A stretch of 14,502 bases of DNA from a virus (IMGVR_UViG_2667527959_000001:1-14502), one strand, 5' to 3'; counted from the first letter of the stretch, positions 8,228 to 14,502 are shown. Made by a program: numbers and translations. The notes: a model not told the origin generated them from the letters alone.

Positions 8228-9292
8228 ATGTCTCTTAACTGGATGCGCCATTTTGAGCTGCAACTGTTGGACCAGAACGGGCAGGGCGTTTCCCTGTCTG
8301 ACTTTAAGGTCACGTTCCAGATCGAGTGGGCAGACACACGCTGGCCGCGCGTGGCGAACGTGAAAATTTACAACCTTTCGACCGATACCACGAACAAGAT
8401 ACTTGGGCAGGAGTTTGCCAAAATTCGCATCATTGCCGGGTATGACGGTATAGCGCCGGATGTTGATGCGAGCCAGGTTGGTGTGTCCCGGGAGATTTCA
8501 CCAGACCAGATAGGGCAGGTGAACGGTCAGAACTACGGCCTGATTTTTGACGGTGATATTCGCTTCACCGTCACCGGGAAGGACAACATTACGGATTCCT
8601 GGGTGCTGATTCAGGCCATCAGTAACCACGAAGCGTTCCTCTACGCGACTACCATCACCACGCTTGCCGCTGGTTATACCGTTGCGGACCTGCACCGGGC
8701 GACTATGCAGGATTTCAACGCGTTCGGCGTGACGCAGGGCATTACCGGTGACTTTCCTGATACCGTGTTTCCTCGTGGCCGTGCGATTTATTCATCCACC
8801 CGTAACGTGATGGATAATATTGCTGCGCAGTGCAAAGCGACATGGCAACTGGTGGATGGTCAGGTCCAGATGGTGCCGGAGGATAAATATATTCACGAAG
8901 CCATTGTGTTGAATGCTGATACTGGCCTGATCGGTATGCCGCAACAGACTATGGGCGGCGGCGTAAACGTGCGGTGCCTGATAAACCCCAACATTCGCAT
9001 CAATGGTCTTATCCAGCTCGATCAGGCTTCGGTGTACCGCGCCACGCTCGGCAATAGCGAAATAGCACAGTCGCCCGGGCGTATCACCGAAACAGAAGAG
9101 AACGGCAACCGTGTGCTGACCGGCACGACGTCACAGGCTGCCAGCATTGCGACGGATGGCGTTTATATCGTCAAAGCTATCGACTATACTGGCGACACAA
9201 GAGGTCAGGCGTGGTACATGGATTTGATGTGTTTTGCGCGTGGCAGTCGTGATTTAGTTAATGCTGGTGCTATGCAAAAAACAAACTACTGA
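8228..9292 (+). CDS. Probable baseplate hub protein (gpD/gp27-like, tentative)
   Basis: 354 aa, preceded by AGGAG (8216-8220). Sits between TMP-proximal genes and the spike. The N-terminal F-x-L-x-L-x-x-x-x-G pattern is reminiscent of gpD-type tail proteins; from memory only. Confidence 0.5.
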   Translation: MSLNWMRHFELQLLDQNGQGVSLSDFKVTFQIEWADTRWPRVANVKIYNLSTDTTNKILGQEFAKIRIIAGYDGIAPDVDASQVGVSREISPDQIGQVNGQNYGLIFDGDIRFTVTGKDNITDSWVLIQAISNHEAFLYATTITTLAAGYTVADLHRATMQDFNAFGVTQGITGDFPDTVFPRGRAIYSSTRNVMDNIAAQCKATWQLVDGQVQMVPEDKYIHEAIVLNADTGLIGMPQQTMGGGVNVRCLINPNIRINGLIQLDQASVYRATLGNSEIAQSPGRITETEENGNRVLTGTTSQAASIATDGVYIVKAIDYTGDTRGQAWYMDLMCFARGSRDLVNAGAMQKTNY

Positions 9293-9302
9293 GGTACGGG
9301 AC

Positions 9303-9641
9303 GTGAAACTAGTAATTTTTACCATTGCAGCATTATTTTCTTTCCAGGCTATTGCTGATTCTCAGTGTGGTGATTTCAACATCCATTGGGCTGATGATGG
9401 TTTCGCTCGCGTAAACGGAGCTAAACCTGAATCGCAAAAAGTGACATTTCTTAAAAATGACGGTGATTATAACAACGTCAAAATTGAATGGCGCTTAGCG
9501 ACCAATCAACCAGGGCGATGGGTAGGAATGGAGTTTATTGGCCGTAATGGTAAAGCAATCCTGAATGCTCAGTGGCTGCAAGCAAATATGGATGCACCAC
9601 GTCAGTATGCAACTTATGACTGTGTAAAAATAAAAGGATAA
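9303..9641 (+). CDS. Small secreted protein of unknown function (cassette gene 1): cleavable signal peptide, ~94-aa mature Cys-containing protein
   Basis: GTG at 9303 is preceded by GAGGT (9291-9295) with 7-nt spacing. The N-terminus MKLVIFTIAALFSFQAIA / DSQC is a textbook Sec signal with an A-x-A cleavage site. The mature part has Cys near both ends. Local GC is about 40% versus about 52-55% in flanks (hand counts). The track's ATG 9261 start would overlap the hub gene and put 14 polar residues before the hydrophobic core. Confidence 0.7.
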   Translation: MKLVIFTIAALFSFQAIADSQCGDFNIHWADDGFARVNGAKPESQKVTFLKNDGDYNNVKIEWRLATNQPGRWVGMEFIGRNGKAILNAQWLQANMDAPRQYATYDCVKIKG

Positions 9642-9646
9642 AATTA

Positions 9647-9967
9647 ATGAAAGGATTTGTATCTCTTCTTTTTCTGCTATCCACCTCCGTTTGCGCTGGA
9701 ACGTTAAGTGATTTTTTTGTAAAACATCCAGATTTGGATAATAACCTTGCTATACACACCGCGATTTCTAAAGCTTCTGGCATGGAGGCTGCTGGATTTG
9801 CACGCAGAGAGGGTGGCAGCGAAAAAGAGCTGATGAGTAGTAAAGGTGATCAATTCGCAGTGCTCGGGTTTCGTCGAGTGAAAATGTATTGTAGCTATCC
9901 TGAATCAGCCCAAATGACTGGTCTAAGCGCTGAAGATTGTAAGCTTGTGCTTAGTAAGAACCTATAG
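9647..9967 (+). CDS. Small secreted protein of unknown function (cassette gene 2): signal peptide, ~89-aa mature protein
   Basis: ATG at 9647 is preceded by AAAGGA (9633-9638). N-terminus MKGFVSLLFLLSTSVCA / GTLSD: hydrophobic core with V-C-A cleavage site, non-canonical for a lipobox. Two Cys in the mature part. Low GC, about 38-40%. Followed 21 nt later by an intrinsic terminator. Confidence 0.7.
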   Translation: MKGFVSLLFLLSTSVCAGTLSDFFVKHPDLDNNLAIHTAISKASGMEAAGFARREGGSEKELMSSKGDQFAVLGFRRVKMYCSYPESAQMTGLSAEDCKLVLSKNL

Positions 9968-9988
9968 TTTCATTTCAAGTATGAATTT

Positions 9989-10014
9989 AACCCGCCACCG
10001 AGCGGGTTTTTTTA
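9989..10014 (+). terminator. Rho-independent terminator closing the cassette: stem ACCCGC / GCGGGT, 6-nt loop, then T7
   Basis: Sequence AACCCGCCACCGAGCGGGTTTTTTT read directly. GC-rich 5-6 bp stem plus a 7-T run, lying between cassette gene 2 and the spike gene start at 10025. Confidence 0.8.
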
Positions 10015-10024
10015 TGGGGTTTTT

Positions 10025-10765
10025 ATGCCAATTCCAACTCAATCACAGATCGGCGGTGAGCAGCAGACCGCGCAGGCCATTGCCGATTCGGTGTCTACCC
10101 AGATGCGCGTAGCGATGCCCGGCATCATTCAGTCGTTCGATCCTGAGACTGTTACCTGCACAGTAGAGGTGGCGCTACGCGGTATTGTTGGCGATGGATC
10201 CACCGAATTAAAACCGCTGGTGGATGTGCCGGTCATCTTCCCGCGCGGCGGCGGTTGCACGCTGACCTTTCCGGTAAAAGAAGGCGACGAGTGCCTCCTG
10301 ATTTTTGCTGACCGTTGCATCGATTTTTGGTGGCAGAGCGGCGGCGTTCAGGAGACCGTCGACCCGCGCCAGCATGACTTGTCTGATGCGTTCGCCATCG
10401 TTGGCCCGCAGTCGCAAGCACAGAAAATCAGCGGTATCAGTACCAGCGCCGCGCAGCTGCGAACCGATGATGGTGCGGCGTTCGTAGAAGTCGCCGCAGG
10501 ACATAACATCACCATTAAAACACCGGGCCAGCTTACAGCTACGGCTGAAGGTGGAACGACAATCACATCCCCGACTATCACGCTGAACGGCAACGTAACG
10601 ATTAACGGTAACCTGTCTCAGGGAATGGGAGAAAGCGGCGGTACTGCGACGATGCTTGGGCCGGTGACGGTAACGAATGACGTAACAGCTTCTGGTATCA
10701 GTGTCGCCACGCATAAACATGGCGGAGTACAGACTGGCGGGGGAACTACCGGAGGGCCGCAATAA
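10025..10765 (+). CDS. Baseplate central spike protein (gpV / Mu gp45-like)
   Basis: 246 aa. C-terminal half is Gly/Thr-rich with repeated beta-strand-like segments (ITIKTPGQLTATAEGGTTITSPTITLNGNVTINGNL) and a near-terminal H-K-H motif (10712-10720), as in the metal-binding tips of spike beta-helices. Located immediately upstream of the small baseplate protein and J-like gene. Confidence 0.7.
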   Translation: MPIPTQSQIGGEQQTAQAIADSVSTQMRVAMPGIIQSFDPETVTCTVEVALRGIVGDGSTELKPLVDVPVIFPRGGGCTLTFPVKEGDECLLIFADRCIDFWWQSGGVQETVDPRQHDLSDAFAIVGPQSQAQKISGISTSAAQLRTDDGAAFVEVAAGHNITIKTPGQLTATAEGGTTITSPTITLNGNVTINGNLSQGMGESGGTATMLGPVTVTNDVTASGISVATHKHGGVQTGGGTTGGPQ

Positions 10766-11118
10766 TGCGATACCGTCGCGAAGATACTGAAGGCGATTAC
10801 ACTTTCGGCCAGGGTGACGATACTTTCCTTATCGACAGTCCGGAATGTGTCGCCCAGGCCGTAAAAACCCGTTTCGAGCTGTGGCGCGGTCAGTGGTTTC
10901 TCGATCTGACGGAAGGCACGCCGTATGTTCAGTCAGTGCTTGGGAAGCAGCGATCAGATGTCTACATCCTGGCTATACGCGAACGCATACAGGATACACC
11001 GGGCGTTCTGTCGATTCTTTCCTTCGATACCAATTATGACGGCACCAGCCGTCGCGTCACCTTCACTTCCTCCATTGACACAATCTACGGCCAGACGACT
11101 GTAACAAGCGAGGCATAA
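10765..11118 (+). CDS. Small baseplate protein (gpW/gp25-like or DUF2634-like, tentative)
   Basis: 117 aa, start overlaps the spike stop (TAATG). Size and position between spike and J-like gene match gpW/gp25-type baseplate wedge subunits. Confidence 0.55.
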   Translation: MRYRREDTEGDYTFGQGDDTFLIDSPECVAQAVKTRFELWRGQWFLDLTEGTPYVQSVLGKQRSDVYILAIRERIQDTPGVLSILSFDTNYDGTSRRVTFTSSIDTIYGQTTVTSEA

Positions 11119-12318
11119 ATGGCTTTGAACCTCGACACGCTGGGGCTATCGGCAACGGTAACCGCCCAGGGGATTAGTGCGCCTGATTACCAGACAATCC
11201 TTGATACACTGACCAGCTATTTCAGGCAGATTTACGGTAGTGATGCCTACCTCGAACCAGACAGCAAAGATGGGCAAATGGTCGCGCTGGTGGCTCTGGC
11301 TGTGCATGATGCTAACAATACCGCTATCGAGATCTACAACTCGTTTTCACCGACGACAGCGCAGGCCGCAGCGCTTAGCAACAATGTGAAAATTAACGGG
11401 ATCACGCGAAAAGTAGCGACAAACTCTACTGCTGACCTTCTGTTAACCGGTACGGCAGGCACGACTATCACGAATGGCTCCGCACGGGATAAAAACGGCA
11501 TTATCTGGAATTTTCCAGCGAGTGTGGCGATCGGCGTTGATGGTACTGTGCTGGTGACGGCCACATGTGCGAATAGCGGTTCGGTTGCGGCGCTGGCCGG
11601 GACTATTACCACTATCAACACCCCGACCCGAGGTTGGGTGTCGGTAACCAATCCAGTTGCGGCTACTGTCGGTTCACCAGCCGAAACCGACGCAGAGCTG
11701 CGCATTCGGCAGGGGCAAAGCGTCGCGCTACCATCGATCACACCGTTTGAAGGTGTCGACGGTGCTATCGCTAATGTTGCTGGCGTGACACGTCACAAAC
11801 TATATGAGAACGACACTGGGGCAACCGACAGCAACGGGCTGCCGCCACACTCTATTTCCGCCATCGTCGATGGAGGGGATGTTACTGAGATAGCCCAGAC
11901 CATCAGGGGGAATAAAGGGCAGGGAACCGCAACTTACGGTAAAACTTCTGTCACAGTGCCGGATACTTACGGTAATCCTCACGTCATCAGTTTTTCACGC
12001 TCTACCGATGTGCCAATTTTCGTAGCCATTACCCTGAAAGTTTTTACCGGGTATACATCTCAAATCGGCGAGCAGATCAAACAGGCTGTTGCCGACTATA
12101 TTAATGGCCTGACAATTGGCGACGACGTTCTGCTGAGCCGTATTTATTCCCCGGCAAACCTCGGCGTTGTGAGCGGCGGGAATGCCCGCTATTACGATAT
12201 TACCGACCTGCTGATCGGTAAGTCGTCTGGCAGCGTATCGGCATCAAACATTGATATTGCCTATGATGCTTCAGCGTCCTGTAGCACCGCGAATATCAGT
12301 ATCACGGTGACCTCATGA
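11119..12318 (+). CDS. Baseplate J-like protein (gpJ / T4 gp6-like wedge)
   Basis: 399 aa, located between the gpW-like and gpI-like genes. Size and order are as in P2/Mu/PBSX-type baseplates. The stop overlaps the next start (ATGA at 12315-12318). Confidence 0.6.
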   Translation: MALNLDTLGLSATVTAQGISAPDYQTILDTLTSYFRQIYGSDAYLEPDSKDGQMVALVALAVHDANNTAIEIYNSFSPTTAQAAALSNNVKINGITRKVATNSTADLLLTGTAGTTITNGSARDKNGIIWNFPASVAIGVDGTVLVTATCANSGSVAALAGTITTINTPTRGWVSVTNPVAATVGSPAETDAELRIRQGQSVALPSITPFEGVDGAIANVAGVTRHKLYENDTGATDSNGLPPHSISAIVDGGDVTEIAQTIRGNKGQGTATYGKTSVTVPDTYGNPHVISFSRSTDVPIFVAITLKVFTGYTSQIGEQIKQAVADYINGLTIGDDVLLSRIYSPANLGVVSGGNARYYDITDLLIGKSSGSVSASNIDIAYDASASCSTANISITVTS

Positions 12319-12995
12319 GCAAATACACCGAACTGATCACTAACTACCACGCTACCAAGCCACTCTTTTTTGACCATATAGATCTGAGCACCCGCCCGCT
12401 GATTGATGTGTCCAGCACTATGTCAGGGCTTGTAACAGCCTTCGATATCGATACGGCGGTTGGCGTGCAACTCGATATCCTCGGCCTGTGGATTGGGCGT
12501 AGTCGTATAGTCAGCCAGCCAATTAGCGGCGTTTATTTCAGCTGGGACACTGACGGGCTCGGATATGACCAGGGCATCTGGCAAGGGCCATATGATCCTG
12601 ATTCTGGCTATACGACGCTAAGCGATGAGACGTACCGCATCATTCTGAAAGCGAAAATCGCTATCAACAACTGGGACGGTCGGAACGACTCTCTGCCTCC
12701 CATCCTTGACGCTGCTACCGCAGGCTCAGGCCTGAGGATGCAGATCGTCGACAACCAGGACATGACGATTTCGGTCTGGGTTTTCCCTGAAACTGATATT
12801 TCTGATGTGTCTCTCGAACTGATCGCCGCTATCAAACAGGGCTATCTCACCGTTAAATCAGCTGGCGTATGGGCCGGTGATGTTGAAACGCCTTCGGTAG
12901 AAACACCGTCAGAAGGCTCTAAATTCTTTGGGTTTGATATGGATAACGAATACATCGGCGGGTTCGATGTTGGAGCATGGGGGACAATACTCTAA
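12315..12995 (+). CDS. Baseplate / tail-fibre attachment protein (gpI / Mu gp48-like, tentative)
   Basis: 226 aa, coupled to the J-like gene upstream and the tail fibre gene downstream (TAATG at 12993-12997). Contains a short tandem peptide repeat VETPS-VETPS. Confidence 0.5.
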   Translation: MSKYTELITNYHATKPLFFDHIDLSTRPLIDVSSTMSGLVTAFDIDTAVGVQLDILGLWIGRSRIVSQPISGVYFSWDTDGLGYDQGIWQGPYDPDSGYTTLSDETYRIILKAKIAINNWDGRNDSLPPILDAATAGSGLRMQIVDNQDMTISVWVFPETDISDVSLELIAAIKQGYLTVKSAGVWAGDVETPSVETPSEGSKFFGFDMDNEYIGGFDVGAWGTIL

Positions 12996-13999
12996 TGGCA
13001 ATAAACAACTTTAAACCTTTCGCGCTTGATCCGAACGCTAACGTCACCTCACAAGCTGACTGGGAAGCACTTCCGGCTCTGCTTTCAGGGTTTACGGCAG
13101 GTAAAGCATCCAGCGCACAGGTCAACAAAGCTATTCGGCAAGCCAGCTTTATCGCGGCAGCGTTGGCGCAGTATACCGCAAACAAAAGTGGGCTGGATGT
13201 GCTTGATGATGGAGACCTGAACAGGTTTATATCCAAAATGGGGACCGCTTTCGGGAAAGATTTCCAGGCGCTTGATGCCACGCTGACGGCATTGGCAAGG
13301 CTCGCAACTGGTGCAAATAAACTCCCGTATTTCACTGGAACTGATACAGCTGCGCTGACTAATTTAACTTCTGTTGGTCGCGACATTATTGGGAAAAATA
13401 CTATTGCTGACATTCTCACATACCTTGGATTAACAGGCGCTTTGATTGGTGATGAATGTAACATTGCTGGATTTGACAGTAGTAACGTCAATGCCCCGTA
13501 TATGCGATTCTCCAGAACAAATACAGTAGTTCCTCTGGCAACAAAAGACTATGCGCAACCAAAAGACCAGACACTGACAGATTTAAGCGGTAAGGATAAG
13601 GCAGCACTAAGAACTTATCTTGAACTGAAAAGTGCGGCGCAAAGGGATGTTGGCTCAGGGGCAAATCAGATTCCGGATATGAATAACTTCACATCCAGCC
13701 TGACCACCCCTGGCTGGCAAAAATTACCGTCAGGTCTGATTATTCAGTGGGGGACAGCCAATCCATCATCAACTGGAGAGGTCTTTATTACGTTTCCTGT
13801 CGCGTTCTCTGCATACCCGATGTATGTGGGATTTGGTCCTCAGCAGGTATCGCTTCCTAACGTAGTTCAGTCGCCAGTAATTTCAGCGCCAACGATAACT
13901 AATTTAGGATGCGGCGTCCGAAATCTGATGATTCCAACAGCGGGCGGAGTACCAGTAGCCAGCATGAGTTCATTTTTCTGGATTGCGGTAGGGAAATAA
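12995..13999 (+). CDS. Side tail fibre protein (receptor-binding), start at ATG 12995
   Basis: Contains TLTALARLATGANKLPYFTGTDTAALTNLTSVGRDIIGKNTIADILTYLGL. This closely matches the conserved segment I recall in P2 gpH and other side tail fibres (...LAGLATAADRFPYFTG...LTKVGRDIL...YLGL). The C-terminal ~190 aa are lower in GC (about 40-45%). ATG 12995 overlaps the upstream stop; the track's ATG 12977 would overlap further. Confidence 0.8.
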   Translation: MAINNFKPFALDPNANVTSQADWEALPALLSGFTAGKASSAQVNKAIRQASFIAAALAQYTANKSGLDVLDDGDLNRFISKMGTAFGKDFQALDATLTALARLATGANKLPYFTGTDTAALTNLTSVGRDIIGKNTIADILTYLGLTGALIGDECNIAGFDSSNVNAPYMRFSRTNTVVPLATKDYAQPKDQTLTDLSGKDKAALRTYLELKSAAQRDVGSGANQIPDMNNFTSSLTTPGWQKLPSGLIIQWGTANPSSTGEVFITFPVAFSAYPMYVGFGPQQVSLPNVVQSPVISAPTITNLGCGVRNLMIPTAGGVPVASMSSFFWIAVGK

Positions 14000-14000
14000 T

Positions 14001-14432
14001 ATGTACAAATACAGTGCTAAAAAAAATGCGTTTTATCTGGCTGGTAATGAGGCCGTATACCGCGATTCCGGCACATGGCCTGATGATGCAAAAGATATTG
14101 AAACCCGACGTGCCGAGTCGTTTATGGCGACACCTCCGCAGGGTAAGCGACGTATTGCAGGTGCAGACGGAATGCCTGCGTGGGCAGATATTCCTTCACC
14201 CACGCATGAAGAACTTATTGAAATTTCTGAGTCAAAAAGACAGCTATTAATTAATCAGGCCAACGAATACATGAACAGTAAACAATGGCCCGGTAAAGCC
14301 GCTATTGGTCGTCTGAAAGGCGAGGAACTGGCGCAATATAATTCGTGGCTGGATTATCTGGACGCACTGGAGCTGGTCGATACTTCCAGTGCACCAGATA
14401 TTGAATGGCCGGAAGAACCAGACACAATGTAA
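14001..14432 (+). CDS. Tail fibre assembly protein (Tfa family chaperone)
   Basis: 143 aa immediately after the fibre gene. The C-terminal ...LELVDTSSAPDIEWPEEP is very similar to the C-terminal motif I recall for lambda/e14-type Tfa proteins (...VDTSTAPDIEWP...). Confidence 0.8.
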   Translation: MYKYSAKKNAFYLAGNEAVYRDSGTWPDDAKDIETRRAESFMATPPQGKRRIAGADGMPAWADIPSPTHEELIEISESKRQLLINQANEYMNSKQWPGKAAIGRLKGEELAQYNSWLDYLDALELVDTSSAPDIEWPEEPDTM

Positions 14433-14502
14433 GCGAAAAAGAAAAACCGCAGCCACGTCGTATGCAAGAACGCGCTGCGGTTGGCTGGTGAACTTTCGAT
14501 AG

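Follow-up and report, generated by a model that had tools for sequence, protein, structure and literature searches.

Our analysis indicates that the window, a 14,502-bp stretch of DNA that constitutes the complete short-read draft contig LLYQ01000103.1 of GCA_001484455.1, very probably stems from a prophage of a temperate myovirus with an Omnitron-like backbone, whose fibre tip and chaperone form a cassette derived from an invertible segment, joined to the fibre at the relic of a crossover site and now locked. Comparisons at the DNA and protein levels show a mosaic fibre, with its junction at the motif YLGL, and support the view that the tip moved horizontally together with the gene for the Tfa chaperone. 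The fixed fibre-Tfa cassette present in the window would thus correspond to one arm of a former switch.

Organization of the fibre and Tfa genes

The window encodes a contractile-tail module (sheath, tube, chaperone, tape measure, baseplate hub, spike, sheath initiator, baseplate J, and a DUF2612 wedge protein), and its final two genes are those for the tail fibre and, behind it, Tfa. The fibre gene (plus strand, 12995-13999) encodes a protein of 334 aa and is supported by RefSeq relatives, by the public gene call, and by its matches to PHROG tail fibre families. The longest open reading frame (340 aa) begins at an alternative start at position 12977; the start at 12995, which overlaps the upstream wedge gene as TAATG, is the probable one, with the 334-aa protein ending at 13999. 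The translated reading frame includes GANKLPYFTGTDTAALTNLTSVGRDIIGKNTIADILTYLGLTGA in the region of the junction motif.

The fibre is built from at least four modules, all encoded on the plus strand, and is followed by the Tfa chaperone. Residues 1-74 (12995-13216) represent a backbone-specific N-terminal part that presumably serves for attachment to the baseplate; they are 99-100% identical to the fibres of L001-L003, three Escherichia coli prophages with the same baseplate genes, and only about 30% identical to the P2-like H proteins of BL21 and L004 (a P2-like prophage of strain PSS-08-1). Residues 75-146 (13217-13432) form a conserved junction block (DATLTALA...LPYFTG...VGRDI...YLGL) that is common to S of phages P1 and P7 (at the end of Sc), H of P2, and Stf of lambda (orf-314); here, the identity amounts to 90-92% with L001-L003 and to 29-39% with the two P2-like H proteins. 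For the remainder of the protein, the relationship is reversed. Residues 147-213 (13433-13633), a linker of P2-like-H origin, and residues 214-334 (13634-13999), the receptor-binding knob, have no real match in L001-L003, but are 92-99% and 95-97% identical, respectively, to the H proteins of BL21 and L004. The knob belongs to the Pfam family Gp53-like_C (PF21882; E 1e-12; 48.8 bits versus a cut-off of 24.9), the match covering residues 249-339 of the 340-aa reading frame, i.e., its extreme C-terminus. Within the linker lies a degenerate second copy of the junction motif (TDLSGKDKAALRTYLELKSAA). The linker (13432-13633 in this comparison) is missing in the variants L012, L013, and L015, in which an intact crossover site is fused straight to the knob.

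Translation places LPYFTG at 13322-13339, VGRDI at 13370-13384, and YLGL at 13421-13432 (with the start at 12995), and 188 codons follow YLGL; both the presence of this motif in the fibre and a C-terminal part of about 190 codons had been recognized in the initial annotation. In blastp searches, residues 91-145 matched lambda orf-314 (64% identity, E 5e-18), residues 2-146 matched S of P7 (43%, E 3e-21), and residues 27-146 matched H of P2 (43%, E 8e-12), and all three alignments stop at YLG(L). A tblastn search of 50,697 phage records again recovered P1 and P7 (E about 1e-9). Within the block itself, the identity to S of P7/P1, H of P2, and lambda orf-314 is 62-70%; the LPYFTG...VGRDI...YLGL block is homologous and no chance match. 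The block had been thought to be shared by P2 H, Mu S, P1 S, and lambda Stf. While this view holds for P2, P1/P7, and lambda, we rejected Mu S as a carrier; it has just NLGL and the gix site in common with the window.

The Tfa gene (plus strand, 14001-14432; 143 aa) begins 1 nt past the stop codon of the fibre gene, and its product was assigned to the Pfam family Caudo_TAP (PF02413; E 2e-30; 105.9 bits versus a cut-off of 22.1) and to phrog_188. Its position directly 3' of the fibre gene corresponds to the Caudo_TAP-type gene order. A scan of positions 12800-14502 for promoters and terminators yielded nothing convincing, and a canonical terminator was not found after Tfa. The Tfa protein is itself a composite. 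Its first approximately 55 residues (14001-14165) co-vary with the knob (89-100% identity in BL21, L004, and L018; 33-45% elsewhere), and its C-terminal 88 residues (14166-14432) reach 86-96% identity in L003, Omnitron, and BL21 and 40% in L004 and L018. The latter part is a widely shared module that is exchanged separately. A published model of Tfa describes a variable, fibre-binding N domain and a conserved, trimerizing C domain (PMC9608196). The two-domain behavior of the protein encoded in the window agrees with this model, and chaperone activity can be predicted for it. A search of the PDB with the Tfa sequence gave no match.

We infer from these assignments that a trimeric fibre would be anchored to the baseplate by its N-terminus and that the knob would bind a receptor on the cell surface, with the variable N domain of Tfa binding the tip and its conserved C domain driving trimerization. 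Searching the PDB with the fibre sequence produced borderline matches only (9zd7 and the R1 pyocin fibre 6CXB; E about 1e-3). No characterized close homologue of the tip was found; identity to its nearest counterparts in sequenced phages does not exceed 61% and extends over parts of the tip. In view of the weak match to 6CXB and of the biology of P2 and the R-type pyocins, lipopolysaccharide (LPS) is probably the receptor, but this is a guess.

Parental types and breakpoints of the exchange

When the N- and C-terminal halves of the fibre were compared separately, they proved to have different nearest relatives: the N-terminal 146 residues are 90-100% identical to L001-L003, and the last 188 residues are 92-99% identical to the H proteins of BL21 and PSS-08-1. 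Instead of being uniform along the fibre and Tfa, the affinities split at the junction. The same picture emerges at the DNA level. Positions 12300-13431 are 94-97% identical to L001-L003, while positions 13413-14410 are 97.2% identical to the H tip and Tfa of L005 (a P2-like prophage of E. coli B/BL21) and 96.8% identical to L006, and positions 13440-14000 are 98.6% identical to L004. Among the matches listed in a megablast search with the whole region, there were only matches to the N-terminal part and to Tfa; the relatives of the tip emerged when 13440-14000 was used alone as the query.

Fine mapping locates the left breakpoint. To the left of position 13413, the window equals L002 at 96 of 104 positions and L004 at 69 of these 104. 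From 13429 onward, it equals L004 at 20 of 21 and then at 99 of 101 positions, compared with 13 of 21 and 62 of 101 for L002. The intervening positions 13413-13428 are identical in all sequences compared, except for one mismatch each in L005 and L018. L018 represents a third backbone and has the same boundary, with 75% identity to its left and 97% to its right. Hence, the comparison with L002, L004, and L018 defines a left exchange interval of 16 nt (plus strand, 13413-13428), which coincides with the outer half-site and cleavage dinucleotide of a crossover site and also encodes the peptide ...ILTYLG. Sixteen nucleotides are few for RecA-dependent recombination, and the exchange may therefore have been of either kind, homologous or site-specific.

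The right exchange interval (plus strand, 14376-14410) lies in the conserved 3' end of Tfa, where homology of the BL21 type ends at 14410 and homology to L001 and phage mEp460 begins at 14376. Position 14410 is also the exact start of the convergent tfa' coding sequence in L002, L003, and L005. These boundaries bear on the proposal that the receptor-binding module and its chaperone were exchanged as a unit. The linker, the knob, and the first approximately 55 residues of Tfa do co-vary, but the C-terminal 88 residues of Tfa and the sequence 3' of 14410 have histories of their own.

Base composition agrees with this picture only in part. Positions 13290-14432 have a GC content of 46.1%, compared with 53.2% for positions 1-13289, and just 2.2% of all windows of 1143 bp have a lower value, so that a shift is present in computed windows. 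The values are 46.5% for the C-terminal part of the fibre gene (linker 41.6%, knob 49.2%) and 47.0% for Tfa, with GC3 values of 40.2% and 39.6%, respectively, versus 55-70% in the other tail genes. The proposed fall to 40-45% is therefore real as a fall, but it reaches about 46-47%, is gradual, and begins upstream of the junction, the N-terminal part of the fibre gene already being low (GC 48.5%, GC3 45.5%). One region elsewhere in the window (9261-9967; 41.7%) has an even lower value. The position of the junction cannot be deduced from composition alone.

A probable crossover-site relic and the missing parts of the switch

Positions 13413-13438 (plus strand) constitute the putative relic of a 26-bp crossover site of the Din family (Cin/Pin/Gin type), TTCTCACATACC-TT-GGATTAACAGGC, which spans the codons for ILTYLGL and has its central dinucleotide TT at 13425-13426. 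It aligns column by column with the annotated cixR site of P7/P1 and with the inverted-repeat sites of L002, L003, L005, and L019; the crossover annotated for P7 cixR (5940-5941 in L017) corresponds to positions 13425-13426 of the window. In comparison with a consensus drawn from the sites of the relatives and of P1/P7 (published examples are given in Table 3 of PMC4134206), the outer half and the central TT match fully, and all four mismatches fall into the inner half. They affect T3, G8, A11, and A12, which are invariant or nearly invariant in the sites seen. The view that the locus has no recognizable crossover site thus had to be given up, as just the inner half of the site is degenerate.

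The changes in the inner half are clustered. Of the 28 mismatches that separate the window from BL21 over 998 nt, eight lie in positions 13429-13449, a stretch of just 21 nt (corrected p about 5e-6), and this recoding relative to the BL21 allele is largely synonymous. The diverged allele is common to the window, L004, and L018, and codon 148 reads ACA, ACC, or ACT (all Thr) across these three, a variation that fits a constraint on the peptide only and not on the DNA site. The inner half is degenerate in the most diverged carrier of the cassette, L018 (about 90% identity), and intact in BL21 (97%). Either the degenerate or the intact allele may be ancestral.

In a survey of 23 related loci, the inner half was at most two mismatches away from the consensus in 6 of 6 loci with an invertase and in 5 of 17 loci without one (Fisher p = 0.005, a crude test, as the loci are not independent). 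The 25 genome loci surveyed are heterogeneous, and many of them have no junction block, so that the "site" picked there is arbitrary and the support from the survey weak. Intact inner half-sites are also found in relatives without an invertase (L006, L013, and L047); degeneracy is thus no necessary mark of locking. A 66-nt probe for the degenerate-site allele, too short and strict for estimating prevalence, matched one E. coli genome.

In the relatives L002, L003, BL21, and Omnitron, the invertible layout consists of the fibre gene, Tfa, a convergent Tfa', an inverted tip, and then a gene with the Resolvase and HTH_7 domains, and inverted repeats such as TTCTCACATACC-TT-GGTTTGGGAGAA flank the invertible segment. 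Both sites, the convergent Tfa', Sv', and the Resolvase+HTH_7 gene are present in L003 and Omnitron; in BL21, the order of elements is the same and the invertase gene is truncated. We found no second crossover site within three mismatches and no inverted repeat in the whole window, and no second site downstream in the near-identical contig L011. A Tfa C-domain match occurs once each in the window and in L011, while the invertible relatives have two convergent ones. For a serine invertase (Resolvase + HTH_7), there was no tblastn match in either the window or L011, and the absence of such a gene from the window, noted at the outset, is therefore borne out. Of the four features that define an invertible segment, the locus accordingly is without three: the second site, the inverted tip and chaperone, and the invertase. 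From its sequence relationships, it appears to be a fixed mosaic fibre-Tfa cassette derived from one arm of such a segment.

The sequence to the right of Tfa provides further information. As the initial annotation had stated, the window ends 70 bp past Tfa (end at 14432). From 14376 it follows L001 and mEp460, and from 14444 it follows HK97: the last 59 nt (plus strand, 14444-14502) are 98% identical to HK97 20943-21001, a segment with tfa on one side and the annotated sib site and att core on the other, and represent the start of an HK97/lambda-type region between tfa and sib-attP. The contigs L011 and L014, which are 98.4% identical to positions 12377-14502, extend further: 306 nt with 98.4% identity to the tfa-sib-att region of HK97, which include the core GCTTTTTTATACTAA, are followed by ybhB-bioA-bioB, and the distance from Tfa to ybhB is about 400 bp in L011. 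The sib site, the P arm, and the core GCTTTTTTATACTAA beside ybhB are seen in L011, L001, and L006, while the window itself holds the first 59 nt of this arrangement. Neither an invertase nor a second tip could consequently be accommodated in this lineage, and a possible second tip or invertase beyond position 14502 was thus addressed indirectly, through contigs that are 98.4% identical and reach sib, the att core, and ybhB. What lies beyond 14502 in the genome of the window is inferred from these near-identical contigs of other samples, a counterpoint to the reading of a locked copy. In this prophage lineage, and by extension in the genome of the window, the fibre and Tfa genes would be the last ones before attR at the lambda attachment site.

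Routes of exchange and relation to known systems

We consider the following course of events very probable. The tip (linker and Gp53-like knob) together with Tfa would be the same cassette that the P2-like prophage of E. coli B has as one arm of its invertible segment; it would have been joined to a different fibre N-terminus within positions 13413-13428, and its right-hand end would lie within the conserved 3' end of Tfa (14376-14410), followed by L001/mEp460-like and then HK97-like sequence. The cassette may have been swapped, in either direction of transfer, by recombination in these two short stretches of conserved sequence. The likeliest route would be homologous recombination, with co-resident prophages, or a prophage and an infecting phage, as partners; it is the simpler reading because the right-hand junction is without a crossover site. 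This copy would be locked, with a single tip expressed constitutively from the late tail operon, because the inner half-site is degenerate, the partner site is absent, and near-identical prophages have neither a second tip nor an invertase.

Other explanations have to be weighed against this course of events. A site-specific exchange without homologous recombination, in which a trans-acting Din-family invertase of a co-resident prophage recombined two crossover sites, or a site and a quasi-site, on two phage genomes at the central TT, would account for several observations: the interval 13413-13428 includes the cleavage dinucleotide (13425-13426), the module boundary falls into this same interval on three different backbones, and, in L004, the cassette ends on its right exactly at the outer half of the right-hand site (…AGG/AA/CGTTTAAGAAAA). 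Serine invertases, however, are normally limited to intramolecular inverted sites plus an enhancer. The 16 nt in question are the sole stretch identical in both parental types and encode a conserved peptide, so that any homology-dependent mechanism would map there too, and the right-hand junction (14376-14410) is a conserved coding stretch without a crossover site. Inversion in trans and the use of quasi-sites have been documented (Iida and Hiestand-Nauer, 1986, 1987, cited in PMC4134206); on the other hand, Rad52-like phage recombinases have been reported to let temperate phages recombine with defective prophages by relaxed homologous recombination (PMC3945230). Overall, we regard a purely site-specific exchange as unlikely. 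An extension of this idea appears quite doubtful to us: the conserved 16 nt (ILTYLG) might act as a portable recombination hotspot at which Din-family invertases move tips in trans among P2-like, Omnitron-like, and L018-like backbones, the inner half being recoded under selection to lock a favorable tip.

It is also conceivable that the switch is still active and that Tfa', Sv', and the invertase lie just past the end of the contig, as such a layout is present in Omnitron, the closest phage, and in L002 and L003, and as short-read assemblies often break at invertible segments. We hold this to be very improbable, since the BL21-type homology already ends at 14410 and gives way to the tfa-sib-att arrangement, ybhB lies about 400 bp past Tfa in L011 and L014, and the four mismatches in the inner half-site affect otherwise nearly invariant positions. 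An assembly chimera of a P2-like and an Omnitron-like prophage in one draft genome would likewise produce a junction in a sequence common to both parental types, and the window is a short-read draft contig. The shared stretch of 16-19 nt, however, is below the k-mers usually employed for assembly, and the same left junction recurs in other samples, with at least four assemblies made independently (L008, L010, L011, and L014; 97.4-98.5% identical across it). Because of this recurrence, we take the junction to be genuine and attach next to no probability to a chimera.

The C segment of P1/P7 (S = Sc + Sv, U, U', Sv', cix, Cin) resembles the locus in several respects: the end of the constant part of the fibre is homologous to the end of Sc (43-47% identity over up to 145 residues), the alignment ends at the crossover site, the site sequences can be aligned, and a Tfa-family chaperone follows the tip. 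In contrast to P1/P7, G/Gin of Mu, and P/Pin of e14, whose invertible layout has been described (PMC4272514), the window has one site-like sequence, no inverted tip or chaperone, and no invertase; without a partner site, second tip, and invertase, it cannot switch in the way P1 and P7 do. The pairs H-G of P2 and Stf-Tfa of lambda, like the locus, consist of a fixed fibre and its chaperone and contain the same block (62-64% identity). H of P2 has a gix-like 26-mer at YLGL (TTATCGAATATC TC GGTTTACAGGAA) and no invertase; in lambda orf-314, as in the window, the outer half of the site is intact and the inner half degenerate (TTCTTGAATACC TT GGGGCCGGTGAG). P2 H and lambda Stf are thus earlier examples of invertase-less fibres in which a fossil site persists at YLGL. 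They differ from the window in their tips (a Gp53-like knob in the window), N-termini, and virion backbones, and its Tfa is 28-36% identical to G of P2 and Tfa of lambda in the C domain only.

The closest counterparts of the cassette are H-Tfa of the cryptic P2-like prophage of BL21(DE3) (NC_012971.2, 888448-890509) and that of PSS-08-1, with 97-99% DNA identity over positions 13413-14410. In both, the cassette follows a P2-type H N-terminus of 352 aa, and in BL21 it is part of an invertible segment whose site is intact (GGTTTGGGAGAT) and which has a convergent tfaE, Sv', and the truncated invertase gene. For the backbone, the closest sequenced phage is Citrobacter phage Omnitron (CP115737.1), which is 96% identical over 96% of positions 1-12999 and has the same tail and baseplate genes and a Tfa C domain with 92% identity. 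Its fibre is different: it comprises 219 aa, has no LPYFTG block, is 66% identical over residues 1-74, where homology stops at 13216, has a tip that is 35-47% identical to that of the window, and is associated with a complete inversion switch.

The same kind of fibre mosaicism has been described for P2, P1, Mu, lambda, and p15B (Sandmeier, 1994, cited in PMC4134206). At this locus, the breakpoints of a host-range cassette exchange between a P2-like phage and an unrelated temperate myovirus can be traced to the base level. Descriptions of mosaic fibres and of inversion systems date back to the 1990s, and the locus therefore leaves current understanding unchanged and represents an ordinary case of host-range module exchange in phages. 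If the doubtful hotspot proposal were true, invertase sites would drive the exchange of host range between genomes as well as intramolecular switching. Apart from that proposal, the locus shows the junction motif to double as the coding imprint of a DNA-invertase site and illustrates the probable decay of an invertible host-range switch to a fixed fibre; it is of use for annotating fibre genes and fossil crossover sites, for choosing fusion points in engineered fibres and tailocins, and for reading the host range of prophages.

Attachment-site end of the prophage

An HK97/lambda-type sib-attP arm terminates the myovirus-type prophage; the window contains the start of this region (14444-14502), and it is also seen in L011 (2068-2373), a contig 98.4% identical to window 12377-14502. 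To judge from L011, from the E. coli prophage L001, and from L006, a locus 96.8% identical to window 13413-14410, the prophage is located at the lambda attachment site, where it adjoins ybhB. Since this arm is a repeat common to lambdoid prophages, it is probably the reason why the window contig breaks off at position 14502.

Small genes among the tail and baseplate genes

An ORF of 42 amino acids (5195-5323), represented in Pfam as DUF6889, follows the tail assembly chaperone gene of the window (4710-5135) and precedes its tape-measure gene (5313-7316). In tailed phages, this place is usually held by a frameshift extension of the tail assembly chaperone.

The lowest-GC islet of the window (9261-9967; 41.7% GC, GC3 33-35%) is flanked by baseplate genes and comprises two small ORFs of 126 and 106 amino acids, neither of which has a match in Pfam; they match the PHROGs families phrog_3443 and phrog_13007, both of unknown function. 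Different genes occur at this position in relatives: the E. coli prophages L002 and L003 have a DUF4236 gene there on the opposite strand, and in L006 a YafO toxin is found near it. The islet looks like an accessory-gene slot.

Cassette variants and copies in related prophages

In the P2-like prophage of PSS-08-1 (L004; NZ_AP027676.1, 5940-6060), the stop codon of the cassette Tfa is directly adjoined by the right-hand crossover site, represented by its outer half (…AGG|AA|CGTTTAAGAAAA), and an intact recombinase gene (188 aa) follows. The second arm is entirely absent, exactly as far as the core dinucleotide of the crossover site. Three metagenome contigs (L012, L013, and L015) encode a fibre that lacks the 67-codon linker (window 13432-13633); their knob is fused straight onto an intact crossover site, and their Tfa is identical. 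L012 further contains a fragment of ybhB, after which baseplate genes occur a second time, in inverted orientation; this arrangement could reflect tandem prophages or a misassembly.

E. coli GZ2408P possesses not only L006 but also a second, different prophage near pphA (L018; NZ_CM172482.1, 3452576-3453995) with a copy of the window's tip that is about 90% identical and likewise has the degenerate half-site allele. Hence, two copies of the cassette are present on different backbones in one genome.

An apparent tfa' remnant in HK97

Directly 3' of tfa, HK97 (AF069529.1) contains an inverted fragment of 53 nucleotides (20812-20864 of the record; 2370-2422 of our locus L025) with 96% identity to the 3' end of the window's Tfa gene (14358-14410). 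This fragment looks like a remnant of a convergent tfa', and hence like a fossil left by an invertible segment in this lambdoid siphovirus.
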